This document shows positions 24,455-39,896 of a stretch of 64,000 nucleotides of DNA, one piece after another. The stretch lies in NCBI GenBank assembly GCA_964276145.1, contig CAXYDN010000007.1:1464-65463 (forward strand). Reading direction: 5' to 3'. Position 1 is the first letter of the stretch. Every line of letters starts with the position of its first letter. A program made the translations under genes and the position numbers. This DNA comes from an uncultured SAR86 cluster bacterium. Its GTDB lineage: Bacteria; Pseudomonadota; Gammaproteobacteria; Magnimaribacterales; D2472. The notes beneath the pieces were generated by a model. That model did not search any database. It was not told where the DNA came from and saw only the letters and a list, made by a program, of their open reading frames with translations.

Positions 24455-24673
24455 CTATCTCCCTCTAAAGGTAATTCTGCCAACTGTTAAATCATAGGGA
24501 GTCATCTCTACTTTAACTTTATCACCAGTTAAAATTCTAATGTAATGCTTACGCATTTTTCCTGATATATGGGCAGTAATAACGTGATCGTTTTCTAGTT
24601 TTACTTTAAATTTAGTATTAGGCAAAGTTTCAATAACTTCACCTTCAAACTCTAGTGCATCTTCTTTTGACAT
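24455..24673 (-). CDS. infA: Translation initiation factor IF-1
   Basis: [11 protein letters not shown]...[28 protein letters not shown]. Confidence 0.98.
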
Positions 24674-24699
24674 GACCGCTATTTTACACTATTAATTAG

Positions 24700-25101
24700 T
24701 TATTTATTATCTTTATAAGCTAAAAGAAGTGAGATGGTTTGAACTACAAGAACTACAATAAAGGAAAGTATATTTAATGGAATGTTAAAAGGTCTCAATT
24801 CATCAACTCCAATACCAACAGCAAGTCCGTTGTAAAAAGGCATAGTAATAACTGAAATCATAAAACCCAGAATCATACACAAACTTAAAAGTGAAGCTAT
24901 GGAATGCATATTCTTCTTCCATATCAAATAAAGTCCTAAAAAAGCTATCATGAAGTTTGTTGCCAATCTCCAAACCTCATGAACTCTTGAATGCTCATCC
25001 CAGTCAGGATTAAATAGATGAGTATCGCCAATATCCAATAATAATGGACCTATGCCTGCTAATATTAAGCAAAGTGAAGTTAATAACTTAGGTATCGTCA
25101 T
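24700..25101 (-). CDS. Small 4-TM membrane protein with H.FNP.W..H.R.H motif (DUF6640-like)
   Basis: DTHLFNPDWDEHSRVHEVW; overlaps the 3' end of the FAH gene. Confidence 0.6.
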   Translation of the reverse strand: MTIPKLLTSLCLILAGIGPLLLDIGDTHLFNPDWDEHSRVHEVWRLATNFMIAFLGLYLIWKKNMHSIASLLSLCMILGFMISVITMPFYNGLAVGIGVDELRPFNIPLNILSFIVVLVVQTISLLLAYKDNK

Positions 25102-25999
25102 TCGTTGGTATTCTTCCTTTTAAAAATTCTGGCATAAAGCTTATATTTGAATGATCGTTAATTCTAATACACTTATTTTTAATAGTTCCAATTTCTTTAA
25201 TTGATGTTGTGACAATATCACCATCTTTAAGTAATTTACCTTGAGTTGCGCCAACACCTGAAGGTGTTCCTGTAAATATAAGATCTCCAGTATTTAATGT
25301 TAGGAATTCTGATATGTAAGAAATAATATCTGGAACTGTAAATATTAAGTCATCGGTACTTGATTCTTGTCTTAATTCATCATTTATATAGCATTCAAGG
25401 TGAAGAGCATCTTTATTGACAACCAAATCTGGAGATACTAAGTAAGGACCTATAGGTCCAAATGTATCAAAGGATTTGCCAAGATTGAATTGAGGAGGAG
25501 TGGCGTGAAATTGAACAGCTCTATCTGAGATATCTTGTCCTACTGTTAATCCAGCCACATGATTCCAAGCAGCTTCTTTCGATATGTTTTTACCTTCTTT
25601 GCCTATCACAAGGACAAGCTCTGCCTCATAATCAACAATATCACTCTTCATTTCAACATTGTCAAAAGGCCCAACAATACAACTAGTATGTTTTGTAAAG
25701 ACCATTGGAAATGGTGGAATCTCCATGCCACTTTCTTCAGCATGCGCTCTATAGTTCAGACCTACAGCAAAACAATTTCTAGAATCTGTTACTGGTGGTC
25801 CTAACAAAGAGTTTTCTATTAATCCTGTTGGTTCAAAGTTATCAATTTTGGTAGATAACTCATGTAAATCATCTAATGAGTTTAGAATTTTTGACGGATC
25901 TGATGTGATCTTACCTTGTGAAATTGTATTAATATCATAATAGGAATCACCATGGATAAGTGCTGATTTACCATTAATATTTGCTAACTTAAATCCCAT
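25088..25999 (-). CDS. Fumarylacetoacetate hydrolase family protein
   Basis: AVGLNYRAH, VDYEAEL, QDISDR, GKSFDTFGP.GP, GDLIFTGTPSGVG. Confidence 0.92.
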   Translation of the reverse strand: MGFKLANINGKSALIHGDSYYDINTISQGKITSDPSKILNSLDDLHELSTKIDNFEPTGLIENSLLGPPVTDSRNCFAVGLNYRAHAEESGMEIPPFPMVFTKHTSCIVGPFDNVEMKSDIVDYEAELVLVIGKEGKNISKEAAWNHVAGLTVGQDISDRAVQFHATPPQFNLGKSFDTFGPIGPYLVSPDLVVNKDALHLECYINDELRQESSTDDLIFTVPDIISYISEFLTLNTGDLIFTGTPSGVGATQGKLLKDGDIVTTSIKEIGTIKNKCIRINDHSNISFMPEFLKGRIPTNDDT

Positions 26000-26071
26000 T
26001 ATGACTCCTTGATAAAATTACTTATTGATATTATTTAACTGTAAAAATTTGAATGTTATTTTTTAAAGGGG

Positions 26072-26108
26072 GACGTGGTAAGAATAAATAATTTAAACTT
26101 ACCACATC
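26072..26108 (-). terminator. Stem-loop immediately downstream of the TonB receptor (terminator or mRNA-stabilising hairpin)
   Basis: Minus strand GATGTGGTAAG-N15-CTTACCACGTC: 11-bp stem with one G.U pair; no canonical U-tract. Confidence 0.6.
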
Positions 26109-26125
26109 TATGCATTTCTAAATAA

Positions 26126-28618
26126 TTAGAAATTTGCTCTATATCTCATCCCAACTTCTCTACCTGGTTGAAGATAACCAACATGAGAACCACTAACAAG
26201 TGGAAGATCGACTCCAAATGATTGACCAACTTCATTTGTTACATTTCTACCAAACACAACCAATGACCATTTATTATCATCAGCTTCAATACCTATACGA
26301 ACATTAACTTTTGTTGTTTCAGGGGACAGATTAAAAGGATCTAGATCATTTTGTGTAAAGTATTCATCAATTTTATTTACATCAGCTCCGAGAACTACAT
26401 TGAATCCATTTGCTGTATTTATTATATATTTCGAATATAGTGAAGATGACATTTCTGGTGCGTTAACCCCTGTTTTACCTTTTAGATCTTGAGAACATGT
26501 TCCATAAATTGTCATCGGCCCCATTGGAGTATTAACAGTATTATTATTAGCAGCTCTGAAAGCAATATCTTGAGCAGCAGTACATCCTCCAATAAACTCA
26601 TCAAACGTGAAGTCAAGATAAGTAAAAGCTCCGCCTACATATAGACCATCAAGAGGAGACCATTCAAAGTCGCCCTCAAAGCCTTCAATTGTTGATGCAC
26701 CTGCATTAGAGACAACAAAAGATGCTCCAACAAAAGCTGAAACCTGCATATCCAAGTACTCAGTACTAAATGCAGCTAGATTAGCTCTTAAATTTTGGTC
26801 TTGTAAATCAAATTTAAGACCAATCTCTGTTGTTGTAGCTTCTTCAGAAGTAAACCTGTTTGACGGATCTGGAGTCGTGTAATTAACTCTTTTTACATTA
26901 TCAGATGCATCGAACCCACCAGATTTATAACCCTCAGCCCAACTTAAATACATCCTTGTTGTATCTGAAAATTCGTAGTTAATTTTTACAGATGGCGTGA
27001 CATGATCTTCGGCCATTTTTTGAAGAGGAAACTCGTACCTATCTCTTCCCAAAACACCAAATAATATGTTTCTGACAAATAAATTATTATCAGTTGATGC
27101 AGCTTCGGCTGTATTTCCACTTGTTAAATCAGATCCTAAAAACTGACTATCCATTAACTCTTTTTCTTCATCAGACCAACGAACACCAGCAGTTAAGCTA
27201 AGTTGATCATTTAGGTACCAAGTACCTTCAGCAAAAACTGATTGACTACTTGTTTCTAAATCATGATGGTGATGGGTGCTTAATACTTTAGCAGGAAGCA
27301 TTCCTCTTGAAAAAGCATTCCATAGTGTGCCGCCAATGCCAAGAGCACCAGTTAGCACAGCATTTGTTACAGGAGCACTACCAAGGTCTCCATTAAGAAA
27401 TCCTTCATTTTGAAAAGAGTATTCAGTCTCTTCTATAAAAAAACCAGCAATATATTCAAACTTATCATTAGAAGGTGAGGTAATTACTAGTTCATGTGTT
27501 GTTGACTCATATTGTTCATTACCACTTACAGACAAGAAGTCTAAAGGTGACATATCAGCATCAGCCCCTTCAGTGAAATCATATTCAGACATTGTAGATG
27601 TCCATGATAGATCATGATCACTTAATGATGTTTTGATATTTAGAATTGTATTTTCAGCATCATTAGTACCACCGTTAGGATTCCCATCTCCATAAATATT
27701 CATTGAATTAGTTGAAGTAAAGTCTTTTCCAACATTTTGTCCTATTTGTGGAAATGCAATATTTGCTACAGTAAAAGCTGCCACGGCTACAGTTCTTCCT
27801 GCAGCTATTATTGATGGTGGTGGCGCTGATAGACCCCAATGTGTTACTTGTGAGTGTTGTCCAGTTCTATCAGATTCAGATTTAAATAGCTTTAAATTAA
27901 CCTCCATATCATCTAGCTCATATAGGAATGTAGCTCTAATAGCATCATGACTACTTGATGGTTCTTGCTTAAATGTAAAAGCATTATCAACCCAACCATC
28001 AGAAGTAGTAGACGACAATGCAATACGCATAGCAAAATTATCATTTAAAGGTATATTTGTAGCCATACTTGTTTTACGCGATGACCAGTCTGGAACAAAT
28101 TCATGCGATATAAATGCATCTAAATCACCTCCAATAACTGGACTTTTACTTACTGTATTTATGACTCCGGCAATTGTATTTTTTCCAAATAAAACACCTT
28201 GTGTTCCTTTAAGAACCTCAATTCTCTCTAAATCAAGTAAAGGGACAGTATACTGCTGGCTTCTAGTGACAGACATTCCATCAACAAACTGTGTTACAGA
28301 TTGTTCGAAACCTTTATTAGTTCCAGAACCTACTCCTCTCATATAGATTGATTGTTCCTGAACACCTTTTGCAACAGTTAGACCTGGAACATATTGAGCT
28401 ATTTCTTCCCATGAAGAAACACCCATATCAGTAATTCTTTCTGATGAAAGAACTTGAATTGAAATAGGAACCTCTGAAAGACCTTGCTCTTTCTTCTGAG
28501 CAGTAACAACGACTTCTTCAAGTCTAGGTTCAGAACTTTCTTGGGCAATCGCATCCTGAACATAAAGACCTGTAAAAATAAAAAACGTTGATATTAAAAA
28601 TAATTTTTTAATAGACAT
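26126..28618 (-). CDS. TonB-dependent outer-membrane receptor
   Basis: Signal peptide, LEEVVVTAQK TonB box, DLERIEVLKG.QG.LFG.N plug motif, GYKSGGF, C-terminal Phe. Confidence 0.95.
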   Translation of the reverse strand: MSIKKLFLISTFFIFTGLYVQDAIAQESSEPRLEEVVVTAQKKEQGLSEVPISIQVLSSERITDMGVSSWEEIAQYVPGLTVAKGVQEQSIYMRGVGSGTNKGFEQSVTQFVDGMSVTRSQQYTVPLLDLERIEVLKGTQGVLFGKNTIAGVINTVSKSPVIGGDLDAFISHEFVPDWSSRKTSMATNIPLNDNFAMRIALSSTTSDGWVDNAFTFKQEPSSSHDAIRATFLYELDDMEVNLKLFKSESDRTGQHSQVTHWGLSAPPPSIIAAGRTVAVAAFTVANIAFPQIGQNVGKDFTSTNSMNIYGDGNPNGGTNDAENTILNIKTSLSDHDLSWTSTMSEYDFTEGADADMSPLDFLSVSGNEQYESTTHELVITSPSNDKFEYIAGFFIEETEYSFQNEGFLNGDLGSAPVTNAVLTGALGIGGTLWNAFSRGMLPAKVLSTHHHHDLETSSQSVFAEGTWYLNDQLSLTAGVRWSDEEKELMDSQFLGSDLTSGNTAEAASTDNNLFVRNILFGVLGRDRYEFPLQKMAEDHVTPSVKINYEFSDTTRMYLSWAEGYKSGGFDASDNVKRVNYTTPDPSNRFTSEEATTTEIGLKFDLQDQNLRANLAAFSTEYLDMQVSAFVGASFVVSNAGASTIEGFEGDFEWSPLDGLYVGGAFTYLDFTFDEFIGGCTAAQDIAFRAANNNTVNTPMGPMTIYGTCSQDLKGKTGVNAPEMSSSLYSKYIINTANGFNVVLGADVNKIDEYFTQNDLDPFNLSPETTKVNVRIGIEADDNKWSLVVFGRNVTNEVGQSFGVDLPLVSGSHVGYLQPGREVGMRYRANF

Positions 28619-28658
28619 ATATTCCCCCTTTGGATATATTTTTATAAGTTAATTTATT

Positions 28659-28702
28659 CTAACCACTTGGATAAAAAAATACAACTATCCAGTTGGATAA
28701 AA
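28659..28702. promoter_or_regulatory. Tandem palindromic operators (putative TetR sites) in the TBDR/GST divergent promoter
   Basis: CTAACCACTTGGATAAAA (28659-28676) and CTATCCAGTTGGATAAAA (28685-28702); the core TATCCA-NN-TGGATA is palindromic. Confidence 0.7.
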
Positions 28703-28752
28703 TAATAATTTATGTTTTACTTAATACACAGTAAATTATTTAGTCTACTTAA

Positions 28753-29613
28753 ATGAACAAAATAGAACTATATGGATACGGTGAATCAGTTGCCTCAAAT
28801 ATGGCAAGGGTTGCTCTGTCCGAAAAAAATATTTCTTTTAAGTACAATCTTTTATATTTGGAGTCAAAAGGGGATCATCTATCAAAAGGTTACAAAAAGT
28901 TAAATCCTAAAAATCTTGTTCCTACTATGATCGATAACGGAAATATTATTCCTGACAGTATTCAAATAATGCTTCATATCAATTCTACCTATTCCCAAGG
29001 TACAGATCTTTTTCCTGAAGACATTAATCAAGATAGATTTAATAACCTTCTAGATTTTGTAAAACTTGATGAAGACAAAGAACTTGGTGAGACATTAGGA
29101 ACAACCGCTGGTGGTATTTCAGCAACTGTTTTGGTAAGACTTTTATGTAAAAGATCTTTATTGAGTGTTATTTGGGATTATTCAACCAAACATTCCATAA
29201 AAAAAAGAATACCTATTTTCATCCTATTAAGGGTTCTTGGAAAACCACCAGAAAAATTATGTAAAAAAATGGCTTTAGCATTATCAAAACATCTAATTTC
29301 TATTGAGAATATTCTTAATCATAAAAAAGAATTTATGATGGGAGATCAATACACAGCAATTGATTCTTGTATGACCTCCATACTGCATAGAATAGATGAG
29401 ATGAGATTTACCAATCTATTAACAAGTGAGTATTTACCAAATTTAGCTAAGTATTGGAAAACTATTCAAGCTCGACCTAGTTATAAAGAGGGAATATTAG
29501 ATTATGTTACTGGCGAATGGGAGATAGAAATACAATCATTATACGGAAGTGGATCAAATAAATATGAAGATCTTGCTTTATCAGAAATTAGTAGACTACT
29601 AGAGGAGAAATAA
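28753..29613 (+). CDS. Glutathione S-transferase family protein with a long central insertion
   Basis: LNPKNLVPT...DS thioredoxin-domain motif; C-terminal GDQYTAID...LPNL..YW.....RPSY. Confidence 0.85.
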   Translation: MNKIELYGYGESVASNMARVALSEKNISFKYNLLYLESKGDHLSKGYKKLNPKNLVPTMIDNGNIIPDSIQIMLHINSTYSQGTDLFPEDINQDRFNNLLDFVKLDEDKELGETLGTTAGGISATVLVRLLCKRSLLSVIWDYSTKHSIKKRIPIFILLRVLGKPPEKLCKKMALALSKHLISIENILNHKKEFMMGDQYTAIDSCMTSILHRIDEMRFTNLLTSEYLPNLAKYWKTIQARPSYKEGILDYVTGEWEIEIQSLYGSGSNKYEDLALSEISRLLEEK

Positions 29614-29615
29614 TT

Positions 29616-30716
29616 ATGAAAGAACCTATATGTAAAATAGCTGATATTATTTATGTCAGGTTTGAGCTTAAGGAATTTGAGGCCCAAAAGAAATACTTAA
29701 ATCATTTTGGAATGATTCTCGCACATGAAGATGAAAATAGTATTTTTTTTAGAGGAACAGGTACATCACCTTATATATATGTAGCTACCAAAGGTAATGA
29801 AAATAAATACATAGGGTCAGCATATAAAGCTAATAATTATTCTGATTTGGAAGCCTTATCTAATGAATTTAATGTTGATATTGTCAAAAATAATGAGCCT
29901 GGTGGGGGGCATAAAGTTACTATTATTGATCCTGACGGTATTGAAGTTGAGGTTTGTCACGGAATGGTATCTGCAGAACCTGTTGCTATTGTTTCAAAAG
30001 TATTAAATACAGGTCAATCAAAGCAAAGAGAAAATGAATTACAGCGTTTTGGACGAGCATCTGATGAATGGCAGGTTCATGGTGATAAATGGGTGTATGA
30101 GTTAACTTCAAAAGTAAAAAGATTAGGGCATACCGCTATTAATTGTAAAGATCCACAAGCATCTGTAGATTGGTATGCAAACACTCTTGGTTTTTTAACA
30201 AGTAATAACTGTATTGGTCCTGACGGCAACTCAATGGGTGCTTTCATGAGATGTGATCAGGGAGATAAGCCTGTTGATCATCACACCCTAAATAATATGG
30301 GCTTGCCAGGTGATATGGATGTTGTTGCATATGGACATGCTGGTTATGAAGTAACTGATTCGGTGGATGACTTAATGGCTGGCCACTATCATATGAAAAC
30401 AGTTGATGAGTACTATCATGAATGGGGAATAGGAAGACATTTACTTGGTAGTCAGATGTATGATTATTGGCGCGACCCGCATGGGTTTACTCATGAACAT
30501 TGGACGGATGGAGATCTAATAGATGCTTCAGTTCCAACCGAAAATTCAGGATTCAGAGATTTAGCTATGGCTCAATATGGACCAGAAGTGCCAAATACAT
30601 TTGGTATAACTATGCCTGTTGATCAAATCGATAAAGCTAGAGCTGAAAACCCAACAATACCAGGAATGATTAAAGAAATGGAAATAGCTGCTAAAGCTTC
30701 TACTAGTGAGGAATAA
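29616..30716 (+). CDS. VOC-fold extradiol dioxygenase, trihydroxytoluene (THT) oxygenase-like
   Basis: Two VOC modules; RLGH, VDHH and HEWGIGRHLLGSQMYDYWRDP.G..HEHWTDGD typical of the THT-oxygenase C-domain. Confidence 0.8.
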   Translation: MKEPICKIADIIYVRFELKEFEAQKKYLNHFGMILAHEDENSIFFRGTGTSPYIYVATKGNENKYIGSAYKANNYSDLEALSNEFNVDIVKNNEPGGGHKVTIIDPDGIEVEVCHGMVSAEPVAIVSKVLNTGQSKQRENELQRFGRASDEWQVHGDKWVYELTSKVKRLGHTAINCKDPQASVDWYANTLGFLTSNNCIGPDGNSMGAFMRCDQGDKPVDHHTLNNMGLPGDMDVVAYGHAGYEVTDSVDDLMAGHYHMKTVDEYYHEWGIGRHLLGSQMYDYWRDPHGFTHEHWTDGDLIDASVPTENSGFRDLAMAQYGPEVPNTFGITMPVDQIDKARAENPTIPGMIKEMEIAAKASTSEE

Positions 30717-30718
30717 TA

Positions 30719-31381
30719 ATGATTGAATTAACTGATGATCAAAAAAAAGCAGTTGCTGCTGCACAAGAAACTTTTTCTACTTTAAAAAATAATACTGATT
30801 CATTAACTGAATCTCAATTAAACTTATTGTTTGGTGAAGCAAGAAGTATGAATGGTTGGCAAGATAAAGATGTCTCTGATGAATTAATTAGATCAATTTA
30901 TGAACTTACAAAAATGGGCCCAACTAGCACAAATTGCTGTCCTGCCCGATTTAAATTTATAAAAAGTGATGAACAAAAACTTAAACTCAAAGAATCTCTT
31001 TTACCTAATAATATAGATAAAGTTATGTCCGCTCCTGTTATTGCTATTATAGGATTTGATTTAGATTTTTCTGACAATATGGGCAAGCTGTTTCCTCATA
31101 TGGACGTTACTCCGATGTATAAGGGAAATGAAATAATGAATCATTCAACTGCTTTTAGAAACAGTAGTCTTCAAGGTGCTTATTTAATGATGGTATCAAG
31201 AGCTTTAGGTTTAGATTGTGGTCCTATGTCTGGATTTGATAATGCAATGGTTGATGAAATATTTTTTAACGGAACGAATATAAAATCAAACTTTCTTTGC
31301 TGTATTGGATATGGAGACCCATCTAAAATATTTATGAGGCTTCCACGCTTAGATTTTGAGGAGGTTTGTGAAATTATCTAG
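30719..31381 (+). CDS. rutE: RutE-like nitroreductase-fold flavoprotein (malonic semialdehyde reductase family)
   Basis: LFGEARS.NGW, GPTSTNCCPARF, RNSSLQGAY, GLDCGPMSGFD, RLPRL.FEE.C. Confidence 0.8.
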   Translation: MIELTDDQKKAVAAAQETFSTLKNNTDSLTESQLNLLFGEARSMNGWQDKDVSDELIRSIYELTKMGPTSTNCCPARFKFIKSDEQKLKLKESLLPNNIDKVMSAPVIAIIGFDLDFSDNMGKLFPHMDVTPMYKGNEIMNHSTAFRNSSLQGAYLMMVSRALGLDCGPMSGFDNAMVDEIFFNGTNIKSNFLCCIGYGDPSKIFMRLPRLDFEEVCEII

Positions 31382-32924
31382 CTTTGTAGCTTTTGTATGC
31401 AAATCTGCATGTTACAAAAAAAAGTATTAGTCCTATTAGTTGATATTTAAATGATTGAATTAAAACCCACATCATTATAAAGAAACCTGCAGTCTTTGAT
31501 ACAGGCTGATTAAGTTCATAATCTCTGTCCAACCAAGGTGAACCTATAACATCTCCACCTTCAGTATCGCCATGTAAGTAGGCATGCACAGGATCTATTA
31601 TTCCTATACTATTAAGCTCTTTAATATTCATTAAAGTATCTTTCATTTCATTAAAAATATTTATTTCAGTACTTGATAAGTCCTCTTTTTCATAAGGATC
31701 ATTGACTATATTAAAAAGCTTAAATTTACCTTCTACATCAAACATTACTGGTTTTTTATAATAAAGCTTCCAATCGTTATTAAAGAGTGCTCTCTCATCA
31801 AAAATAATCTTATTTCCAACAAATGCATTATCAGGGGGTGTGATTTTATTTGTTATTAAATTAGACCATCTATCGACTCCATCAATTAGTAAATCTTCGT
31901 CATAACCAATCTCTGTTGCTGTTAAGAGTGTTGGAAGTAAATCTTGTATAAAAATAAATTGATCAGTTTTTGATTTTTCAAGTACTCCTTTCCACCAGAT
32001 AGCTGCAGGTACTCTTATTCCACCATCAAGAGCTGAAGTTTTGCTTCCTCTAAGACCAGCAGTACTGCCTTTAGATTTTGTTAAACCAGGTGCAATTGTT
32101 TTAACTATTGGATTTATATCAAAAACAGGTCCATTATCACTTAAAAATATAATGATAGTTTCTTCAAGTATTCCTAACTCTTTTATTGAATTAATAATTC
32201 TACCAATTTCAATATCAAGTTTACTTATGTTTGCTGCATAGTTTCTATCTAATTCATCTTCTATATGTAAAAAATTGTTAACATCTTTTTCTGGTGCCTC
32301 AATTGGCGTATGAGGGGCATTGAATGCAACATAGAGAAAAAGAGGACGGTCATCATCTTTATTTTTAATTATATTAATTGCCTCATCAGCTATTAATTCT
32401 GTAGAGTATCCATCTTCACTTAATGAGACGCCATCTCTATGCCAGTCCATTCTATTGGTGTGAACATGATCATAATAGCCAATACCACCTAACATATGAC
32501 CATAACTAGAATCAAAACCTCTATTGGTTGGTAAATATTCTTCTTTATGCATGCCTAGATGCCACTTGCCAGATAATGCTGTCTGATAACCAGCTTCTTT
32601 AAAATATTCTGGCATTATTTTTAGATGTTCTGGTAGACCTGTTTGTTCTGCCGATGGGTTCATAAAGGGCCTAATAACTCCATGATTAAATATATGAAGT
32701 CCTGTTAATAATGACGCTCTAGTAGGACTACATGTCGGATTAGCATAAAACCTATTTAATTCAACACCACTAGAAACAAACTTATCAATATTTGGAGTTG
32801 GTATAAATCCACCATGATATGAAACATCTCCCCAGCCTAGATCATCAGTGAGGATTATTATTACATTGGGTTGACTATATATAGACAGAGTAAAAAATAA
32901 TAGTAAATAATTATAAAACTTCAT
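31374..32924 (-). CDS. Arylsulfatase (Cys-type, formylglycine-dependent) with signal peptide and C-terminal membrane anchor
   Basis: PNVIIILTDDLGWGD, CSPTRASLLTG, GKWHLG, FNAPH, SDNG; hydrophobic C-terminal tail followed by basic residues. Confidence 0.92.
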   Translation of the reverse strand: MKFYNYLLLFFTLSIYSQPNVIIILTDDLGWGDVSYHGGFIPTPNIDKFVSSGVELNRFYANPTCSPTRASLLTGLHIFNHGVIRPFMNPSAEQTGLPEHLKIMPEYFKEAGYQTALSGKWHLGMHKEEYLPTNRGFDSSYGHMLGGIGYYDHVHTNRMDWHRDGVSLSEDGYSTELIADEAINIIKNKDDDRPLFLYVAFNAPHTPIEAPEKDVNNFLHIEDELDRNYAANISKLDIEIGRIINSIKELGILEETIIIFLSDNGPVFDINPIVKTIAPGLTKSKGSTAGLRGSKTSALDGGIRVPAAIWWKGVLEKSKTDQFIFIQDLLPTLLTATEIGYDEDLLIDGVDRWSNLITNKITPPDNAFVGNKIIFDERALFNNDWKLYYKKPVMFDVEGKFKLFNIVNDPYEKEDLSSTEINIFNEMKDTLMNIKELNSIGIIDPVHAYLHGDTEGGDVIGSPWLDRDYELNQPVSKTAGFFIMMWVLIQSFKYQLIGLILFFVTCRFAYKSYKAR

Positions 32925-33522
32925 TTAAACCCGATTGTCTTGCTTTAAAGAAAAAATCCATGAATTTTTTCATTTCTTTTTCATTGATATCCAAAACTTC
33001 CATAATATATGGCTTCATTGATGCAAGGCCAAATTCTACAACCATAACTATTGCAATTGCGGCTTTCATCTCAGCTGTCGGTTTTTTTTCATTTTTTAAC
33101 TTAACTAACTGATCTAGGGTTTTTTTAGACATAGATAGATTTGAATCAACCTGCACTCTAACTAAGTCCATGCGGTTGTCTAGCACTGCTCTGATGATTG
33201 CTTTAAAGTAATTGTTTGTGATATCTCCTAGAGGCTCTCTAATTAAATTATCAACCGAAACATTTCTTCTTTGTAATTGCTCTATATGTTCAAAAGCAAG
33301 TAACTTATATGTAGCTGTAAGAAGTCCATCTTTACCACCAAAATAGTGGTGTATTTGAGCATGATTTACTCCTGCATGATCTGCTATATCTCTAATAGTT
33401 AATTGATTTGGTCCTATAGAACCAACAAGCACTGCAGCTGATTCAATTAATTTCTTCTCAACATTCTGTCTGGCTTTTGTTTTATTGCTTTTAATTGTTT
33501 TTAATTTAGATACTTTGTTCAT
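32911..33522 (-). CDS. TetR/AcrR family transcriptional regulator
   Basis: LTIRDIADHAGVNHAQIHHYFGGKDGLL helix-turn-helix. Confidence 0.92.
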   Translation of the reverse strand: MNKVSKLKTIKSNKTKARQNVEKKLIESAAVLVGSIGPNQLTIRDIADHAGVNHAQIHHYFGGKDGLLTATYKLLAFEHIEQLQRRNVSVDNLIREPLGDITNNYFKAIIRAVLDNRMDLVRVQVDSNLSMSKKTLDQLVKLKNEKKPTAEMKAAIAIVMVVEFGLASMKPYIMEVLDINEKEMKKFMDFFFKARQSGLNEVL

Positions 33523-35085
33523 GTTAGCTCACTTATTAATTTTTTATTTAATTCATCAACTTTTGTAATCATTGATTCATTATCACAACATCCATATACA
33601 TGCCTGTCTGGTCGTATTATAACTGCTGAAATTTTATTATCTCTTTTCCACTTTATAAAATTACTATCTTCATTAAATGGACTATCTTTATTTATTAAAT
33701 AAATATTATCTTCAAATATTTTTGAGCTTTCTAGAGCTTTAATATCATTAAGTAATTTTTCATTTTGATCAAACACTATTAATGCAAAGTTATAACCTAT
33801 GTATTGATCAAACGATTTATTATCTACTTTAAGATCTAAATTCGGTTGGGATATAACAATCCCATTTGCTTTGTTGGGATATAAGGACTTATCTATCAAC
33901 CCAGTAGTAATTTGCCAAGGATGATAAAAATCAAAAAAGCTTAATAATTTTGGAAAAATTCTAGCCACATTAAGCAATGTATCTCTAATCAAGGCTATAT
34001 ATTTATTCTGGGTTCCAATAACCCCGCCATGTTTAATAGCAGTTTCAGTAACTGATTTAACAATTGATATTCGCTCATCAGAATATGTTTCTAATACCCT
34101 GTCAGCATACTTACCTTCTAATCACTCCATCTAACTTCCAATGAAGGTTATAGACGTCCTTTATTCCTTGACACAAGCCTTGACCAAGAAAGGGGGGCAT
34201 TTGATGGGCTGAGTCTCCAACAAAAAAACAATTATTTGACTTAAAGGTTTCTGCCACAAGCCCATGAAAAGTATATTTACTAGCTCTAAGTATATTACCA
34301 GTATTGATATCAATATCAGGATTTAGTCGCCATGCATGTTTTTTCATCATTGAACGAATTGAGCTATGCTTTTCTATTTCATTAACATCGTCGCCTTCAT
34401 TAAATTTAAATTCCCATCTAACGTGTTGTCCTGCAATGTGTGCAAGCGTTGTAGGTCTATGATAATCACATATATGCATAGGACCTGCTAAAATTTTATA
34501 TTTTGGATCTATTTCATAATCCACAACAATCCAATCTTGATCACATTTATAATCAAAGGATTTTATATTAAGCTTTTGTCTTACAAAACTATTAGCACCA
34601 TCACATGCTAATACATAAGTTGATGAAATTTTCTCTTCTTCACCTGTGTCTACATTAGTTACAGTTAAATAATTATTATTAACTTCTGAGGATAATTCTG
34701 AAAGGGACTCACCTAATTTAAAAGTTATATTTTCATATTTTGACGCTCTAGATCTCAAATCTTTTTCAAGATTAGGTTGACTAAATCCAACAGTTTCATA
34801 GTATCCATTGGGTTGAGGATTGTTTGAAAAGTCAACATAAACGATCTCTTTACCTCTTTTATTTATAAATTTAAGTCCTTCGAATGAAGTTCTGGCGATA
34901 TCATTAATAATGCCCATTGACTGAAAAATTCTTTGAGTTTGCCCATCAAGAGCAACAGCTCGAGGTATATCCCATATATCTTTTTTAGGTTCAACAACAA
35001 CAACATTATGACCGCTAGCTCCAAACATGTTGGCAGCTACTGCTCCAACAGGCCCATAACCAATTATTGCTATATCGAAATGCAT
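33519..35085 (-). CDS. MhpA-like FAD-dependent phenolic monooxygenase; apparent +1 frameshift near 34122
   Basis: IIGYGPVG, PRAVALD, ACDGANS.VR, GDSAHQMPPFLGQGLCQGIKD..NL.WKL. Removing one base restores VLEGKYADRVLETYSDER, joining the C-terminal IRPDRHVYG domain. Confidence 0.85.
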
Positions 35086-35119
35086 TTAATATATATATAC
35101 ATAAATTTTATTGATTAAG

Positions 35120-35136
35120 TTTAGTCAAGTGGTTAG
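35120..35136 (-). promoter_or_regulatory. Third copy of the putative TetR operator, in the monooxygenase/mmsA divergent promoter
   Basis: Minus strand CTAACCACTTGACTAAA, 15/17 identical to CTAACCACTTGGATAAA at 28659. Confidence 0.65.
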
Positions 35137-35181
35137 GATAGTCAATATAAATATAACAAATTATACTGTTAGGAATTCAAT

Positions 35182-36669
35182 ATGTATCAAGTAACAAATT
35201 ATATAAATGGCAAGGAATGCTCTGAGTCTAACGAGTCAATAGCTATTATAAATCCATCATACGGGACTGATATAGGTGAAGTTCTATATGCTACCAAGGA
35301 TAGTGCTAATAATGCCATTGATGCAGCAGCCAAACGATTTAAAACTTGGTCTAAAACAGGTTTAAGTTATAGGGCTGAATTGATATTAAAATTAAGACAA
35401 GGAATTATTAATAGATCTGACGAAATTATTAATATTTGTGTAAGTGAGGCTGGTAAAACACGGCCTGATGCTGAGGCAGAATTAGACAGAGCTATTCAAG
35501 CACTTACTCATACTGCTGGTGTTCAACATTTTTATCCATCTATTATGAGTCCTAATGTTGCAGGAGGAATAGATATAACAGATGTTAGGTATCCAATTGG
35601 AGTTGTTGTTGGTTGTGGGCCATTTAATTTTCCAATATTAATACCTATACTTCATGCCTCTATGGCTATAGTAACTGGTAATACATTTATTGCTAAACCC
35701 AGTGAAAAGGTTCCATCAATTTCAAGATTGTATGCAGATATATTTAAAGAATCTGGTTTCCCAGATGGTTGTTATAACGTCTTAAATGGCGGCAAGGATA
35801 TTGTTGAGCAATTAGTTTGTCATGAAAAAGTAGCCGGTTTAGCGTTTATAGGAAGCACGCCTGTGGCAAAAAGTTTAAAAATTTTAGGAGTTGAGAATAA
35901 TACTAAAGTGCAAGCTCTTGGTGGAGGTAAAAATCATATGGTTGTCCTGCCAGATGCTGACCTTAATATGGCTGCTGATGCAGCTGTTTCTGCAAGCTTT
36001 GGAGCAGCTGGACAAAGATGTATGGCCGTTTCTGTTGTTGTTGCTGTGGGTGATATTGGTGATGAATTAGTAGATAAAATAAAAGAAAGAATGCCCAGTC
36101 TTATAATGGGTAAAACAGATAATCCTGATACGCAACTAGGCCCAGTTATATCTCAAGAAAATAAAGATCGTATATATGCGTTCATAGATTCAGCAGAACC
36201 TGACGGGGCAACTTTAGTTGTTGACGGAAGACCTTTGTCTGATAAGGAGGAGGGCTCTTTTGTTGGTGCTACTCTAATTGATCATGTAAAACCTGGGATG
36301 TCTGTTTACGAAAACGAGATATTTGGTCCTGTTTTATGTTTTGTAAGAGCTAAATCATATGAAGAAGCGATGGATATCACCGATGGTCATAAGCTTGGTA
36401 ATGGAGCTGCTTTATTTACTCGTGATGGCGGGGTTGCTCAAAAATGGGCTAACGAAGTCCAAGCTGGATCAGTTGGTATCAATGTTCCCATACCTCTTCC
36501 TACATACTCTCATAGTTTTGGTGGCTGGAAAGATAGTGGTTTTTCAGAAACCAAGGCATTTGGGAGCTCTTCAATAGAGTTTTATACAAAAACTAAATCA
36601 ATTACCTCAAGATGGCCTAATCCAGCTGATAGTAAAGTAGATTTAGGCTTTCCAAAAAATGATAATTAA
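35182..36669 (+). CDS. mmsA: CoA-acylating (methyl)malonate-semialdehyde dehydrogenase
   Basis: PFNFP, KPSEK, GGKNHMVVLPDAD, GAAGQRCMA, EIFGPVL, GINVPIP.P...SFGGWK.S. Confidence 0.88.
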   Translation: MYQVTNYINGKECSESNESIAIINPSYGTDIGEVLYATKDSANNAIDAAAKRFKTWSKTGLSYRAELILKLRQGIINRSDEIINICVSEAGKTRPDAEAELDRAIQALTHTAGVQHFYPSIMSPNVAGGIDITDVRYPIGVVVGCGPFNFPILIPILHASMAIVTGNTFIAKPSEKVPSISRLYADIFKESGFPDGCYNVLNGGKDIVEQLVCHEKVAGLAFIGSTPVAKSLKILGVENNTKVQALGGGKNHMVVLPDADLNMAADAAVSASFGAAGQRCMAVSVVVAVGDIGDELVDKIKERMPSLIMGKTDNPDTQLGPVISQENKDRIYAFIDSAEPDGATLVVDGRPLSDKEEGSFVGATLIDHVKPGMSVYENEIFGPVLCFVRAKSYEEAMDITDGHKLGNGAALFTRDGGVAQKWANEVQAGSVGINVPIPLPTYSHSFGGWKDSGFSETKAFGSSSIEFYTKTKSITSRWPNPADSKVDLGFPKNDN

Positions 36670-37917
36670 ATGGTAGATTTTTTTCTAAGAGTATCCACAT
36701 ATTTTATTTTTATATTCATTGATTCTTATATTTATTTAAGAATATTTTTAAGAGAAAAGTTTTTTTACAAACCGATAATAGAGCTTTCAAATTTTAGGAA
36801 GTATTTTGTTACTATTAACAATGAAGATCACTCAGTATGGGAAATTGGAAATAAAGATGCTGTTAAAGAAAAAACTCTAATATTAATTGGAGGAATACCT
36901 ACAGATCCGCTTAAGTCTATGTCCTGGATGGCAGATTGTCTAAATACAATCGATAATTCACTGAGAATAATAATATTTAATATGCCATATTATGAAGATC
37001 ATTTTAATATTGATGTTTCAAATTCATTAGCAATATCAAATGGAGAAAGTTTAACTAGCAAGAAAATAATAGATTTTTCTAAATTAAAAGTAGATCCGAA
37101 GTATAGTCATGTTAATCAGTCTAAAACTATAAAATTATTGATGAATGAAATGGGTATAGATGCGGCTCATTTAGTAGGACATGATAGGGGAGCTGTGATA
37201 CTTGAAAATCTTTGCATGATTAGCCCAGACAAAGTTTTATCTTATTCAAGAGGTTCTCAAGTTTGGAATTATTATGATCCACAATGGAGAAAACTAGCAC
37301 CAGAAGTACTTGTAGGTCCTCCTCATAGCATCATGTCTTCATATCATCAGTTAAGACTTCTTCTATTTGCTGTTATCTTTTTAAATAGACCCATACAACT
37401 TCTTTCTCAAGGTTTTGTTAGTAAGGCTAGAAAAGCTAAGAAGGGCACACATTTGTTTGATAGATATACCCATTTAAAACTTACATCTCAAGTTGCTTAT
37501 AAAAGCTACTTCAATAAGTTTAAACAGTCTTTGATGCAAGGTGGTTTGAGCTTCGAGGTTGAGAATAGAAATAAATTCAAAGATATAAATATACCTATTA
37601 TGCAATTCCAAGGTGAAGATGAATTTAAGGAAGCTCCAAATGGAGTTCTCATTTCAGATCAACCATATTTTGGTAAATATAATTTATATAAAAATGAGAT
37701 AGAGGATATTTATCCAGGCGCTATTCATCAATCCTCAGGAGTTGCTTGCCAAAGCCAGTTCATTACTGATAAAAATACCTATAAGATGATACAAACAAAA
37801 GTTGGATCAAAATTTAGCAGATTCTGCCTAATACCAGAATCTGCTCATTTTAATGTGATAGAAAATCCTAAATCATGCGCCAATGCAGTGTATGATTTTA
37901 TAATTAGTTTGAGATAA
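36670..37917 (+). CDS. Membrane-anchored alpha/beta hydrolase with Asp nucleophile (GHDRG; haloacetate dehalogenase/epoxide hydrolase-like)
   Basis: HLVGHDRGA elbow, QGEDE, C-terminal SAHFNVIENP; hydrophobic N-terminus. Confidence 0.7.
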   Translation: MVDFFLRVSTYFIFIFIDSYIYLRIFLREKFFYKPIIELSNFRKYFVTINNEDHSVWEIGNKDAVKEKTLILIGGIPTDPLKSMSWMADCLNTIDNSLRIIIFNMPYYEDHFNIDVSNSLAISNGESLTSKKIIDFSKLKVDPKYSHVNQSKTIKLLMNEMGIDAAHLVGHDRGAVILENLCMISPDKVLSYSRGSQVWNYYDPQWRKLAPEVLVGPPHSIMSSYHQLRLLLFAVIFLNRPIQLLSQGFVSKARKAKKGTHLFDRYTHLKLTSQVAYKSYFNKFKQSLMQGGLSFEVENRNKFKDINIPIMQFQGEDEFKEAPNGVLISDQPYFGKYNLYKNEIEDIYPGAIHQSSGVACQSQFITDKNTYKMIQTKVGSKFSRFCLIPESAHFNVIENPKSCANAVYDFIISLR

Positions 37918-37932
37918 ATAAGGAATATAAAT

Positions 37933-38247
37933 ATGAGTGACATAACAGTATATATGGTAGTAAATTTAAAGATTAACGATGCAGATGAATATAAAATATA
38001 TGAAAAGGGTTTTTTTACTTTTCTTAAAAAACATAATGGATCATTTATCACCTTTGACGACTCACCATTGTGTTTGGAGGGAAATGAACCCAGTCAATTT
38101 GATAGAGTCATACTATTTTCTTTTCCATCTGAAGATGATGCTGATAATTGGTGGGATGATACTGGGTATCAAGAACTATGTAAACATAGAAGAGCTGGTG
38201 CTGAAATAACGTTGCAAAGAGTTAAAGGAATGCTCCCAAGAAAATAG
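37933..38247 (+). CDS. DUF1330 family protein
   Basis: LEG....DRVILFSFPS...A..WW....YQ....HR. Confidence 0.85.
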   Translation: MSDITVYMVVNLKINDADEYKIYEKGFFTFLKKHNGSFITFDDSPLCLEGNEPSQFDRVILFSFPSEDDADNWWDDTGYQELCKHRRAGAEITLQRVKGMLPRK

Positions 38248-38315
38248 TATTTATCTGTAATTAGCTGTTTTAAATAATTTACATTTAGTCTAACCACAAT
38301 GATATATTTCTTCTT

Positions 38316-39896
38316 ATGAAAAGAAGATCTTTTTTTAAATTTTTTAGCCTTTTAATTCCTGTGTTAAATATAAGAGTTTTAGCAGAAGAAAGTGATGAAA
38401 AAGTATTATTTAATTATGGTGTTGCCAGCGGTGATCCGACTCATGATAGAGTTGTAATTTGGTCTAAAATTACAAAAAATACTAATAAAAAAATAAACGC
38501 TGAATGGCAAATATCAAATAAAAAAGACTTCTCAAACATAATTAGTTCAGGGATTACAAAGTCCTATGCTCATAATGATTTTACACTAAAGGTAGATGTA
38601 AAAATCCCTTCAAAATATAATGCAAATGAAATCTATTATCGTTTTATTGTAAATAATAACCATTCTCCGATTGGAAAAACCAAGACTTTACCCATTTTAA
38701 ACCCAGATAAATTTAATTTAGCATTTTGCAGTTGCTCTAATTATCCAGCTGGTTTTTTCAATGCATATCGTGAGATAGCACTAAATGATGATATTGATCT
38801 AGTTTTACACTTAGGTGATTATTTATATGAATATGGAGTAGGGGGCTATGCTACAGAAGATGCAGCAAAACTTAATAGGCAAGTTGATCCTATCAATGAA
38901 ATCCTCAGCTTAGAAGATTATAGAAAACGCCATGCGTTATATAAGACAGACCATGATCTTCAATTATTACATGCATCAAAACCAATGATTGCAGTCTGGG
39001 ATGATCATGAATTTACTAATGATTCATGGAAAAATGGGGCTGAAAATCACTCATATGATGAGGGTTATTTTGCTTCAAGAAAAGCAAATGCGATAAAAGC
39101 TTATTATGAATGGATGCCTATTAGAGAAACTGATTCTAAATTAAAAATATGGAGAAAATTTGAAATCGGATCTTTATTTCAATTATTTATGTTAGATACA
39201 AGATCTATATATAGAGATAAACAATTAGATATGGAAAGCTATTTTACTGAAAATGGTTTTAATAAAATAAAATACAAAAAAGATTTAATTAAAAATAGAA
39301 ATCTTGTAGGAAAAGAACAATTTGATTGGCTGGATAAAAATATTGATAGTAAATTTAACTGGTCCATTATTGGACAACAGGTTCTTGTTTCACCAACTGT
39401 TTTACCAGAAATATTTTCTAAATTGGATAAAAAATCCTTACCAGAATATATTCATAAGTATTTGAAACTTGGCGGCTTGGAGATTCCTTTTAATACTGAT
39501 TCATGGGATGGTTATCCAAATGAAAGAGATAAGTTATTTGAAATATTATCTAAATCACAATCAAATATTATTCTAACAGGCGATACTCATAATTCATGGC
39601 TATCAAATTTATTTAACAATAATAATTTTCTTGGTGTAGAGATAGCTACACCTTCGATATCTTCACCAAATACGATCGATACATTTGGTTCAATAACTGA
39701 TGATATAGATAATGACTTTGTTAAATCAAATAAAAACCTTAAATATACAAATGGTTCTGGTAAAGGTTTTGTACAGTTAACAGTTCACTCAAGCCATATT
39801 GATACAAAGTTTGTCTATGTTAGTACTATTAAGTCTAAAGACTATAAAGTAATAGATAACAATACCTTTACCATTAATCATAATAAACCATTATAG
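38316..39896 (+). CDS. phoD: Alkaline phosphatase D family protein, Tat-exported
   Basis: KRRSFFK twin-arginine signal, GVASGDP, SCSNY, HLGDYLYEY, WDDHE..ND, LDTR, DSWDGY, TGDTH. Confidence 0.93.
   Translation: MKRRSFFKFFSLLIPVLNIRVLAEESDEKVLFNYGVASGDPTHDRVVIWSKITKNTNKKINAEWQISNKKDFSNIISSGITKSYAHNDFTLKVDVKIPSKYNANEIYYRFIVNNNHSPIGKTKTLPILNPDKFNLAFCSCSNYPAGFFNAYREIALNDDIDLVLHLGDYLYEYGVGGYATEDAAKLNRQVDPINEILSLEDYRKRHALYKTDHDLQLLHASKPMIAVWDDHEFTNDSWKNGAENHSYDEGYFASRKANAIKAYYEWMPIRETDSKLKIWRKFEIGSLFQLFMLDTRSIYRDKQLDMESYFTENGFNKIKYKKDLIKNRNLVGKEQFDWLDKNIDSKFNWSIIGQQVLVSPTVLPEIFSKLDKKSLPEYIHKYLKLGGLEIPFNTDSWDGYPNERDKLFEILSKSQSNIILTGDTHNSWLSNLFNNNNFLGVEIATPSISSPNTIDTFGSITDDIDNDFVKSNKNLKYTNGSGKGFVQLTVHSSHIDTKFVYVSTIKSKDYKVIDNNTFTINHNKPL

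Follow-up and report, generated by a model that had tools for sequence, protein, structure and literature searches.

In the surface ocean, SAR86 and SAR92 bacteria belong to the most abundant heterotrophs, and the diet of SAR86 has largely been guessed from annotations. A 64,000-nt stretch of a SAR86 genome (the window, to which all coordinates refer) contains a sulfatase gene, a TonB-dependent receptor gene and several genes for enzymes of aromatic catabolism side by side, and this raises the question whether these neighbours form one system, and which compound such a system would serve. Our analysis shows that they belong to a real, conserved gene island of 12.4 kb (24693-37079), a report of which we did not meet in the literature, and that the four transcription units of the island are tied into one regulon by a shared, co-varying putative operator. 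It is possible, if a little short of an even call for the whole chain, that this TetR-controlled island would import, desulfate and ring-cleave a sulfated phenolic compound to yield pyruvate and (methyl)malonate semialdehyde, and finally an acyl-CoA.

The source genome (G000; other G-numbers stand for related genomes and L-numbers for loci elsewhere) comprises 1.19 Mb (31% GC) on 11 contigs, is about 85% complete, and carries the window on a 409-kb contig. The window is AT-rich, with a G+C content of 27-35% in 2-kb windows. Genes were called from a list of open reading frames (ORFs) together with Pfam and NCBIfam scans of the window proteins. The relatives that we scanned make up an order of four families and have genomes of 0.9-1.8 Mb; 25 genomes, G000 counted, are in the source genus. 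The SAR86 genome paper (PMC11582366) likewise gives four families for the SAR86 order, and a monooxygenase homologue of 58% identity bears the NCBI name "SAR86 cluster bacterium", from which the source organism is probably a SAR86 bacterium.

The edges of the island become visible by comparison with G007, which belongs to the same genus and has no gene for the ring-cleavage dioxygenase of the island, a protein of the VOC/glyoxalase fold. G007 is collinear with the window up to position 24692 and again from position 37080, with 89% nucleotide identity on both sides. Its left flank has the order ETF-beta, ETF-alpha, ceramidase-like gene and infA, and on the right side the alignment resumes inside an a/b-hydrolase gene, followed by the DUF1330 gene and prolyl oligopeptidase. 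The genes for the membrane protein, the FAH-family hydrolase, the receptor, the glutathione S-transferase (GST), the VOC dioxygenase, the RutE-like protein, the sulfatase, TetR, the monooxygenase and MmsA are all absent from G007, together with codons 1-137 of the a/b-hydrolase. Since G007 retains a 5'-truncated remnant of the hydrolase gene, which shares 92% protein identity with the copy in the window, its state looks like the loss of a pre-existing island and not like an insertion into G000. The indel is marked on its left side by an infA (IF-1) frame of 72 codons (~24470-24690, minus strand) that separates the ceramidase-like gene from the island; this frame is below the length of the ORF list and was recognised by eye in a six-frame translation of the homologous G007 stretch.

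Within the genus the genes also occur together. The VOC gene is present in 5 of the 25 genomes (G000, G002, G009, G018 and G024), and both the RutE-like family and this type of sulfatase are found in the same five. A methylmalonate-semialdehyde dehydrogenase (MMSDH) above cut-off is encoded in four of these five, the copy of G024 being cut by a contig end. None of the four families was found in the other 20 genus genomes, which are 56-94% complete. The genomes are kin and not independent, so that this co-occurrence amounts to one or a few events of gain or loss. Since the genes for MmsA and the RutE-like protein are found in the genus only in island-bearing genomes, both count as dedicated island genes; MmsA as a housekeeping gene was rejected, as it was not found in the 20 island-free genomes.

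The four transcription units diverge outward from the intergenic regions 28619-28752 and 35086-35181. From the first region the genes for the receptor (26126-28618), the FAH-family hydrolase (25088-25999) and the membrane protein (24700-25101) are read on the minus strand, and those for GST (28753-29613), the VOC dioxygenase (29616-30716) and the RutE-like protein (30719-31381) on the plus strand. From the second region the monooxygenase (33519-35085), TetR (32911-33522) and the sulfatase (31374-32924) are encoded on the minus strand, and MmsA (35182-36669), the a/b-hydrolase (36670-37917) and the DUF1330 protein (37933-38247) on the plus strand. The inner two units converge at 31374-31381. 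The gaps between GST and VOC and between VOC and the RutE-like gene are 2 nt each, and overlaps of 4-14 nt exist between the FAH and membrane protein genes (14 nt), between sulfatase and TetR, and between TetR and monooxygenase. The ORF list, Pfam and NCBIfam confirm the gene positions and families of a preliminary description of the locus, and its layout of four units from two divergent promoters stands as well. A promoter scan of the window gave 60 promoter-like sites versus 71.8 in shuffles, and the terminator scan was uninformative.

The longest word common to both divergent intergenic regions is an 11-mer that is part of a 14-bp palindrome, TAaCCA-NN-TGGtTA. Two copies are located between the receptor and GST genes (28660-28699; TAACCACTTGGATA at 28660 and TATCCAGTTGGATA at 28686), and a further copy, TAGTCAAGTGGTTA, is located between the monooxygenase and MmsA genes (35122-35135). 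The 1.19-Mb genome has 61 matches to the palindrome with at most 2 mismatches, versus 66-94 in five shuffles; 3 of the 61 are within the 230 bp that the two divergent regions span together, a count that is partly circular because the motif was derived from these same regions. Stronger evidence than the genome-wide count comes from the conservation of the operator across genomes. The sites are kept in G018, G024, L023 and L033, the latter having the perfect palindrome TAACCAAGTGGTTA, and the 28 bases around the operator at 35122 are identical in G018 and G024 and show 2 differences in L033. In G002 and G009, which have no receptor gene, so that FAH and GST directly flank the palindrome, TAGTCA-NN-TGACTA replaces it at both promoter regions, and TetR is divergent (58-70% identity to TetR of the window). 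If one repressor acts on both promoters, their operators are expected to change jointly, as is seen here. The TetR protein (TetR_N, 3.5e-11), whose gene is located inside the monooxygenase-sulfatase unit, is presumed to bind the palindromes and is the candidate repressor of all four units.

A half-matching operator word, TCTAACCACAATGATA, is present at ~38285-38305 upstream of a gene for a PhoD-like phosphatase (38316-39896, plus strand) to the right of the island. This phosphatase gene is also present in G018 and was not found in G007, G010, G020 and G023.

Beyond the genus, a scan with one genome per species resulted in 36 loci, to which the window proteins were then compared by tblastn. The main set consists of 21 loci with a VOC protein of at least 51% identity, several of them cut by contig ends. 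GST is encoded immediately upstream of VOC in 17 of the 21 loci, and the RutE-like gene follows downstream of VOC in 15. TonB receptor and TetR are each present in 14 loci, the sulfatase in 12 at an identity of at least 37% (16 with weaker matches), and MmsA, the monooxygenase and FAH in 11 loci each; four further SAR92/Porticoccaceae genomes have FAH (58-60% identity) just outside the fetched flank. According to the record titles, SAR92 isolates, Porticoccaceae, Luminiphilus, Maricurvus nonylphenolicus and other Pseudomonadales are among the carriers. In the SAR92 isolates the genes are arranged as FAH-second GST-sulfatase-monooxygenase, divergent from MmsA-receptor-GST-VOC-RutE-like-TetR. 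The preliminary description had also expected the genes to co-occur in other genomes, which holds for the five genus genomes as well as for loci in other orders. Synteny, co-occurrence, the clean indel and the shared operator agree, and the arrangement is more than chance adjacency.

Of the 15 more distant loci (VOC 34-40% identity; Sphingomonadales, Hyphomonas), 12 have only a core of VOC, FAH and monooxygenase. The same trio of genes is carried as a group by a Microvirga plasmid and by pNL2 of N. aromaticivorans, and on a plasmid of Burkholderia stagnalis VOC and FAH occur and the monooxygenase does not; the genes of the plasmids and distant cores are annotated only generically. When plasmids were searched by tblastn with VOC and monooxygenase, generically named relatives of at most 36% identity, and no record with a Dnt protein, were obtained among the matches listed. 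On pNL2 (L061) the order is amidohydrolase, MhpA-like hydroxylase, heme-binding protein, VOC, FAH and a/b-hydrolase, and one may speculate that the amidohydrolase is a resorcylate-type decarboxylase that feeds a similar route. The idea that the VOC gene of pNL2 encodes the solved protein 3b59 was ruled out by sequence comparison. The B. stagnalis (L058) and Microvirga (L059) loci have a gene for an acyl-CoA synthetase of ~650 aa after VOC-FAH (plus the hydroxylase in Microvirga) and no MmsA; speculatively, this enzyme hints at another acid product in soil bacteria, e.g., a fatty acid derived from an alkylresorcinol. In L033, a single-cell genome, MmsA, RutE-like protein, FAH and GST are 70-80% identical to those of the window and the dioxygenase only 57%, and its dioxygenase allele may have been replaced.

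In order to assign the VOC protein, we calculated an AlphaFold (AF2) model from an alignment of 24 sequences (pLDDT 91.2) and compared it with 48,161 chains by VIA, independently of Foldseek. The model had Z values of 26.8-33.2 to nine entries. Eight of these are catechol-type two-domain extradiol dioxygenases, namely AphC, homoprotocatechuate 2,3-dioxygenase (HPCD), catechol 2,3-dioxygenase, HsaC, two BphC, 2,2',3-trihydroxybiphenyl dioxygenase and 1,2-dihydroxynaphthalene dioxygenase, and the ninth is the uncharacterised Mn-bound protein 3b59. Individual values were Z 32.0 to 1mpy (rmsd 2.7, 286 aligned residues), 32.5 to 1q0c and 7q2a, and 27.6 to 1han, and the next class, the 4-hydroxyphenylpyruvate dioxygenases (HPPD), reached Z values of at most 16.8. 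Foldseek agrees on the class (E 1e-17 to 1e-20). By sequence, 3b59 was the only protein detectable in the PDB (5e-15). Residues H172, H222, H223, H241, Y284 and E294 are invariant in all 24 aligned homologues; they stand in the sequence contexts usual for such enzymes, with H172, H241 and E294 as the candidate metal triad, and H222, H223 and Y284 as candidate catalytic acid-base residues. The model thus identifies the VOC protein as a type I two-domain catechol-type extradiol dioxygenase of an uncharacterised clade, and an enzyme with this fold should attack the ring beside a vicinal diol. Those homologues that bear a name at all are annotated just as "VOC family protein", "glyoxalase", "hypothetical protein" or catechol 2,3-dioxygenase-like lactoylglutathione lyase family enzyme. 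The marine form has a 17-residue insert and C-terminal helices, both missing from the short form of the distant loci (~305 aa).

The vicinal diol would be provided by the monooxygenase (FAD_binding_3). The preliminary description had listed it as an MhpA-like monooxygenase; the family holds, and the gene proves to be split into two frames, with the N-terminal part at 34111-35085 (324 aa) and the C-terminal part at 33519-34121. The cause is one extra A near 34113-34120 (TTAGAAGG in the window; the orthologue of G018, 92% identical, reads TTAG-AGG). With 390.5 bits (cut-off 390) this intact orthologue just enters the broad NF004829 subfamily, and it attains the cut-off of none of the MhpA-type equivalogs (306 bits versus 546, or lower). 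Its best PDB matches are PnpA, 2,4-dichlorophenol 6-monooxygenase and 2-hydroxybiphenyl 3-monooxygenase, and also phenol hydroxylase. By its sequence the protein is most readily classed as a group A flavoprotein phenol hydroxylase.

Close homologues of the monooxygenase in the protein collection all have a length of 521-528 aa. Among metagenome contigs an exact 31-mer of the frameshift allele was found in none and a 30-mer of the intact allele in 7; these 7 contigs are only 85-93% identical to the window and hence stem from other lineages, so that they do not settle the frameshift question. Compared to G018, 3 of the 23 comparable window genes are split between frames (the monooxygenase, a prolyl oligopeptidase and a gene near 63160), which suggests indel errors in the assembly, as a hint and not as proof. 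The prolyl oligopeptidase gene (39998-42090, plus strand) consists of two overlapping ORFs in different frames, split at ~40390, and its G018 orthologue is one frame of 681 aa. The other gene (62383-63547, minus strand) changes frame near 63160 and encodes 400 aa in G018. Sequence words of the window region 33400-35200 occurred in six listed RNA runs with shares of 0.64, 0.48, 0.28, 0.24, 0.18 and 0.15, which is not evidence for expression; 14 further rows among the listed runs (12 marked "DNA?", 2 unmarked) had shares of 0.86-0.93.

The FAH-family protein (PF01557, 1e-62) has 2,4-didehydro-3-deoxy-L-rhamnonate hydrolase as its best curated family (186 bits versus a cut-off of 500). Its best PDB matches are 6v77, a "putative HpcE" (1.5e-58), and 8gsr, L-2,4-diketo-3-deoxyrhamnonate hydrolase (1e-40). 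The latter, as its name indicates, breaks a 2,4-diketo acid down to pyruvate and an acid. In the NCBIfam scan (E <=0.01) the FAH protein had no match among the hydratase or decarboxylase families that belong to the classical meta pathway. We propose that it is an acylpyruvate (2,4-diketo acid) hydrolase.

MmsA matches TIGR01722 over its full length with 496.2 bits (cut-off 448.5) and is the sole MMSDH above cut-off in G000. It contains QALGGGKNH and GQRCMA, and reached 235 bits with the 2-hydroxymuconic semialdehyde dehydrogenase family, for which the cut-off is 693. This assigns it as a predicted CoA-acylating (methyl)malonate-semialdehyde dehydrogenase. The RutE-like protein has a flavin mononucleotide (FMN) nitroreductase fold, lies above the cut-off of NF003768 (274.4 versus 152 bits), and has the FMN oxidoreductase IstO as best PDB match (6e-36). 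Its gene has no rut operon context: the neighbours encode VOC and the sulfatase, and no rut-like family is present among the island genes (a search for rutA-D in the remaining genome was not made). The protein may be either a malonic semialdehyde reductase or a quinone reductase, and the latter is the more economical role compared to a second outlet for malonate semialdehyde.

The GST (286 aa, GST_N and GST_C domains) has an N-terminal motif of the Ser type, ESVASNMARVAL, without Cys; Ala stands at the position where zeta-class and PcpC enzymes carry a Cys. It matches the maleylpyruvate isomerase 2v6k (3e-6). In a search by language-model features, 24 of 30 hits fell into the family set of a plant TCHQD-class row (score 0.96), which is a lead only. 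We propose that the GST is an isomerase of the ring-fission product.

The sulfatase (PF00884, 1.7e-58) combines this domain with a CSPTR motif and thus has the C/S-x-P-x-R signature of S1 formylglycine-dependent sulfatases of the Cys type. Its sequence has a hydrophobic leader of ~17 residues at the N-terminus and a hydrophobic tail at the C-terminus, and by eye we read the protein as exported and perhaps membrane-anchored. The TonB-dependent receptor has Plug and barrel domains. Receptors of the relatives L012, L015, L023 and L033 are 43-46% identical, and the flanking genes 70-96%; the receptor gene looks as if it was swapped like a cassette inside a conserved cluster. The membrane protein of 133 aa gives a weak match to DUF6640 below cut-off and probably has 4 helices and a His-rich loop (DTHLFNPDWDEHSRVHEVW). 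Its relatives adjoin FAH in L033 (60% identity) and L020 (30%).

The a/b-hydrolase (415 aa) is very divergent, with a weak match to Abhydrolase_1, marginal matches to epoxide hydrolases in the PDB, and generic a/b-hydrolase clusters in a Protein Atlas search. Its motif GHDRGA is, as we assume, the Asp-nucleophile motif of the epoxide-hydrolase/dehalogenase type. The gene is intact in G002 and adjoins the monooxygenase in L024, L029 and L054. Two pieces of it (28 and 47 residues, a 75-aa remnant) lie between MmsA and PhoD in G018 (L012, 3431-3662), as a case of gene decay. The DUF1330 gene (PF07045, 1e-19) is present in the island-free genome G007 and in L033, and was not found at the G018 locus. 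Given the decayed hydrolase gene of G018 and the position of DUF1330 beyond the indel, both are treated as accessory and not constant parts, DUF1330 being weakly associated. The preliminary description had counted both as members; they are present here, and both persist in G007, the hydrolase there as a remnant.

How the constant parts may act together can be proposed as follows, with substrate, step order, intermediates, products and the roles of GST, RutE-like protein, membrane protein and a/b-hydrolase being what we infer. The receptor would bring an anionic sulfated phenolic across the outer membrane, and the secreted Cys-type S1 sulfatase would strip off the sulfate in the periplasm; the pairing of a receptor with an exported sulfatase suits an anionic sulfate ester that loses its sulfate in this compartment. 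Once neutral, the phenol could pass the inner membrane with no need of a transporter. In the cell the group A FAD monooxygenase would hydroxylate it, and of the possible products, a vicinal diol or a triol, a hydroxyquinol is the most likely; should a quinone arise instead, the RutE-like FMN protein would be the reductant. The extradiol dioxygenase would open the ring beside the diol, GST would isomerise or tautomerise the ring-fission product, and the 2,4-diketo acid formed in this way would be hydrolysed by the FAH-family enzyme, with pyruvate and either malonate semialdehyde or methylmalonate semialdehyde as products. MmsA would convert the semialdehyde to acetyl- or propionyl-CoA; as an alternative outlet, the RutE-like protein could reduce it to 3-hydroxypropionate. 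TetR would repress all four units via the 14-bp palindrome in both divergent promoter regions. The dedicated MmsA, the FAH enzyme of the diketo-acid type and the catechol-type dioxygenase in combination favour an intermediate of the 1,2,4-trihydroxybenzene type.

Several observations weigh against this pathway. Because the monooxygenase is frameshifted in the assembly, the pathway may be dead in this strain. There is no gene for an inner-membrane transporter within the island. The VOC protein stays far under the cut-off of the curated NCBIfam extradiol families (HpaD 45.7 of 321 bits, BphC 38.6 of 366, catechol 2,3-dioxygenase 37.9 of 320, HsaC 26.3 of 450), and neither among its close relatives nor among those of the other cluster enzymes is there a characterised member. 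GST falls below the cut-off of TIGR01262 (maiA, maleylacetoacetate isomerase; 60.5 versus 171 bits, N-terminal domain only). MmsA proteins of the cluster are low-scoring and divergent (479-498 bits versus 741-778 for MmsA of a sister family), and MmsA plus a RutE-like protein for one product is redundant. For the sulfatase, carbohydrate sulfatases (ARSB, 8e-57, and carrageenan sulfatases) rank ahead of the P. aeruginosa arylsulfatase (5e-46) among the PDB matches. In a sister family the orthologous sulfatase is at least 47 kb away from the VOC-monooxygenase pair in three of the four genomes that have both. A formylglycine-generating enzyme (FGE, PF03781) is present in two SAR92 genomes; G000 (85% complete), G018 (90%, on one contig), G002 and G009 gave no match to it, in a search that did not include radical-SAM maturases. 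Periplasmic desulfation, as proposed in the preliminary description, has the signal-peptide-like N-terminus of the sulfatase in its favour, and against it that FGE was not found in these four genus genomes. The receptor, which that description took as a member, is indeed part of 14 of the 21 wider loci, and is exchanged or absent in close relatives: it shares 46% identity with its G018 counterpart, next to neighbouring genes with 85-96%, and is absent in G002 and G009.

Which substrate is cleaved is the point at which other explanations enter. An ordinary substituted catechol (alkyl-, acyl- or carboxy-), formed from a monophenol that the sulfatase supplies, could be opened by the dioxygenase, with FAH and the MmsA-like enzyme acting on other products. 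The nearest structures of the VOC protein are catechol, alkylcatechol, homoprotocatechuate, biphenyl-diol and seco-steroid dioxygenases, the monooxygenase is as close to ortho-hydroxylating phenol hydroxylases as to PnpA, and the divergence of MmsA from other MMSDH leaves room for another aldehyde. We nevertheless consider this explanation unlikely, since the island scans revealed no families of aldolase, 4-oxalocrotonate-type tautomerase, decarboxylase, hydratase or acetaldehyde dehydrogenase, FAH shows no match to the hydratase/decarboxylase families, and MmsA exceeds the cut-off for MMSDH and not that for 2-hydroxymuconic semialdehyde dehydrogenase. A route for a halogenated (brominated) phenol or hydroquinone, like those for pentachlorophenol (PCP) and lindane, is distinctly improbable. 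It would comprise ipso-substitution by the monooxygenase, the RutE-like protein as quinone reductase, a GST resembling the tetrachlorohydroquinone (TCHQ) dehalogenase, and the a/b-hydrolase as dehalogenase. The hits of GST in the TCHQD-class set, PnpA and 2,4-dichlorophenol 6-monooxygenase among the best matches of the monooxygenase, and the Asp-type GHDRGA motif of the hydrolase with its weak epoxide-hydrolase matches would agree with it. Against it, VOC groups with catechol-type enzymes, with no PcpA/LinE-type hydroquinone dioxygenase in its sequence search (E <=0.01) or among the structure rows shown, where absence from the list is not an exclusion; GST has Ala at the Cys position of zeta-class and PcpC enzymes; no maleylacetate reductase was found in the family scans of the island; and the a/b-hydrolase is dispensable in G018. 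A quinone reductase, which would also suit the halophenol route, is needed in the 2,4-dinitrotoluene (DNT) route as well, according to the accessible part of PMC10602510.

The cluster might also serve cleavage of the A-ring of a larger sulfated polyphenol, e.g., a flavonoid, as in fde and ifc, which appears a rather remote prospect. FAD monooxygenase, glyoxalase-fold dioxygenase and a/b-fold C-C hydrolase occur together in the Herbaspirillum fde and Variovorax ifc clusters (PMC11069340, in its accessible part), the TonB receptor speaks for a substrate whose size or charge would keep it from passing porins, and in three Porticoccaceae loci the a/b-hydrolase adjoins the monooxygenase. On the other side, the Variovorax record with a relative of the monooxygenase has no relative of VOC, the a/b-hydrolase is Asp-type and not Ser-type and is not constant, and MmsA and the RutE-like gene are left unexplained. 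Finally, the genes could be mere neighbours, with the sulfatase acting in desulfation of sulfolipids and MmsA in valine or beta-alanine catabolism. SAR86 arylsulfatases are read as sulfoglycolipid desulfatases in the available text of PMC11582366, and the orthologous sulfatase of a sister family is often far from VOC. The shared and co-varying operator, the single indel block, the matching co-occurrence in 25 genomes and the synteny across orders make this hardly credible. Taken further than the source genome, our preferred pathway would make the cluster a dedicated aryl-sulfate regulon of SAR86, SAR92 and OM60/NOR5 relatives that uses hydroxyquinol meta-cleavage, and the natural reservoir out of which the lower pathways of DNT and methylhydroquinone (Mhq) degradation were recruited; in this broad form we regard the idea as doubtful.

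The value of the finding lies in the breadth and abundance of the carriers among ocean bacteria, in the sharp definition of the regulon, and in cultured carriers. Since the cluster is present in cultured SAR92 isolates, it can be tested directly, and the TetR operator is a handle for finding the inducer. The SAR86 genome paper (PMC11582366) lists, in its accessible part, many catechol dioxygenases, GSTs, TonB receptors and arylsulfatases without linkage. The island joins one dioxygenase, one GST, one TonB receptor and one arylsulfatase into a single unit with sharp edges under control of one putative repressor, and provides, for a single aromatic component of marine dissolved organic matter, a specific hypothesis that can be put to the test. 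If the proposed pathway was true, sulfated phenolics would be a defined carbon source of SAR86, and hydroxyquinol meta-cleavage, known from xenobiotic pathways, would gain a natural context. To our knowledge, genetic evidence for this cleavage to pyruvate and malonate semialdehyde has until now been limited to man-made nitrotoluenes and metabolites of pesticides. Literature on SAR86/SAR92 aromatics, sulfatases and hydroxyquinol or orcinol routes contained, in the text accessible to our search (passages without supplements such as Table S5 of PMC11582366, in which these genes may be listed), no description of the cluster, in agreement with the preliminary description, which had called it a candidate undescribed system.

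Known systems resemble the island to different degrees. The classical meta-cleavage pathways (xyl/dmp/mhp/bph) also have a phenol hydroxylase followed by a type I extradiol dioxygenase, and the VOC model has Z values of 27-32.5 to XylE, BphC, HsaC and HPCD. They differ in that the island has no Ser-type hydrolase for the meta-cleavage product, no hydratase, no aldolase and no acetaldehyde dehydrogenase, and in that its aldehyde dehydrogenase is of the MMSDH type. The fde and ifc clusters, as far as their description is accessible, share with the island the combination of three families named above, and differ from it as the island is without cupin genes and its a/b-hydrolase is Asp-type and dispensable. 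In the uncharacterised VOC-FAH-MhpA-like triads of Hyphomonas, Sphingomonadales, the Microvirga plasmid and pNL2 the core families are adjacent as well, often together with TetR (VOC 34-40% and FAH 38-49% identity); these triads are without GST, RutE-like protein, MmsA and sulfatase, have the short VOC form, and some include an acyl-CoA synthetase or amidohydrolase.

The Mhq route of Burkholderia sp. SFA1/NF100 and the orcinol pathway of P. putida, in their accessible descriptions, are like the island in that an FAD monooxygenase and then an extradiol dioxygenase lead to a triketo acid. Chapman and Ribbons reportedly described in 1976 that further cleavage is by acylpyruvate-type hydrolases. 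In Burkholderia SFA1 methylhydroquinone is converted to trihydroxytoluene and further to 2,4,6-trioxoheptanoate, according to the available part of PMC8571283. No MmsA, GST, sulfatase or TonB receptor is described with Mhq in these sources, as far as they are accessible. A match of VOC to an SFA1 plasmid (31.5% identity) was rejected as the Mhq locus, as it lies on another plasmid and in another gene context.

In the DNT lower pathway of Burkholderia a monooxygenase forms a hydroxyquinone, which a non-specific reductase turns into trihydroxytoluene. The ring of this product is opened by an extradiol oxygenase, pyruvate and methylmalonate semialdehyde are released by an isomerase/hydrolase, and a CoA-dependent dehydrogenase acts last (PMC10602510, accessible part). 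The families of DntB, DntC, DntD, DntG and DntE are each represented in the island with the same proposed order of steps; this likeness is at the family level, and the RutE-like protein is assumed to be the DntC-type reductase. At that level the preliminary description was right to see a likeness to DntB/D/G/E, and all five enzyme families of the DNT lower pathway stand in one putatively co-regulated cluster. Over and above the DNT families, the island encodes a predicted secreted sulfatase, a TonB receptor, a separate GST, TetR with its operator and a small membrane protein, and it is chromosomal, resides in streamlined marine hosts and is unlinked to genes for a nitroarene dioxygenase. Its enzymology is a recombination of known families, and its novelty is that of a variant and not of a new class of chemistry.

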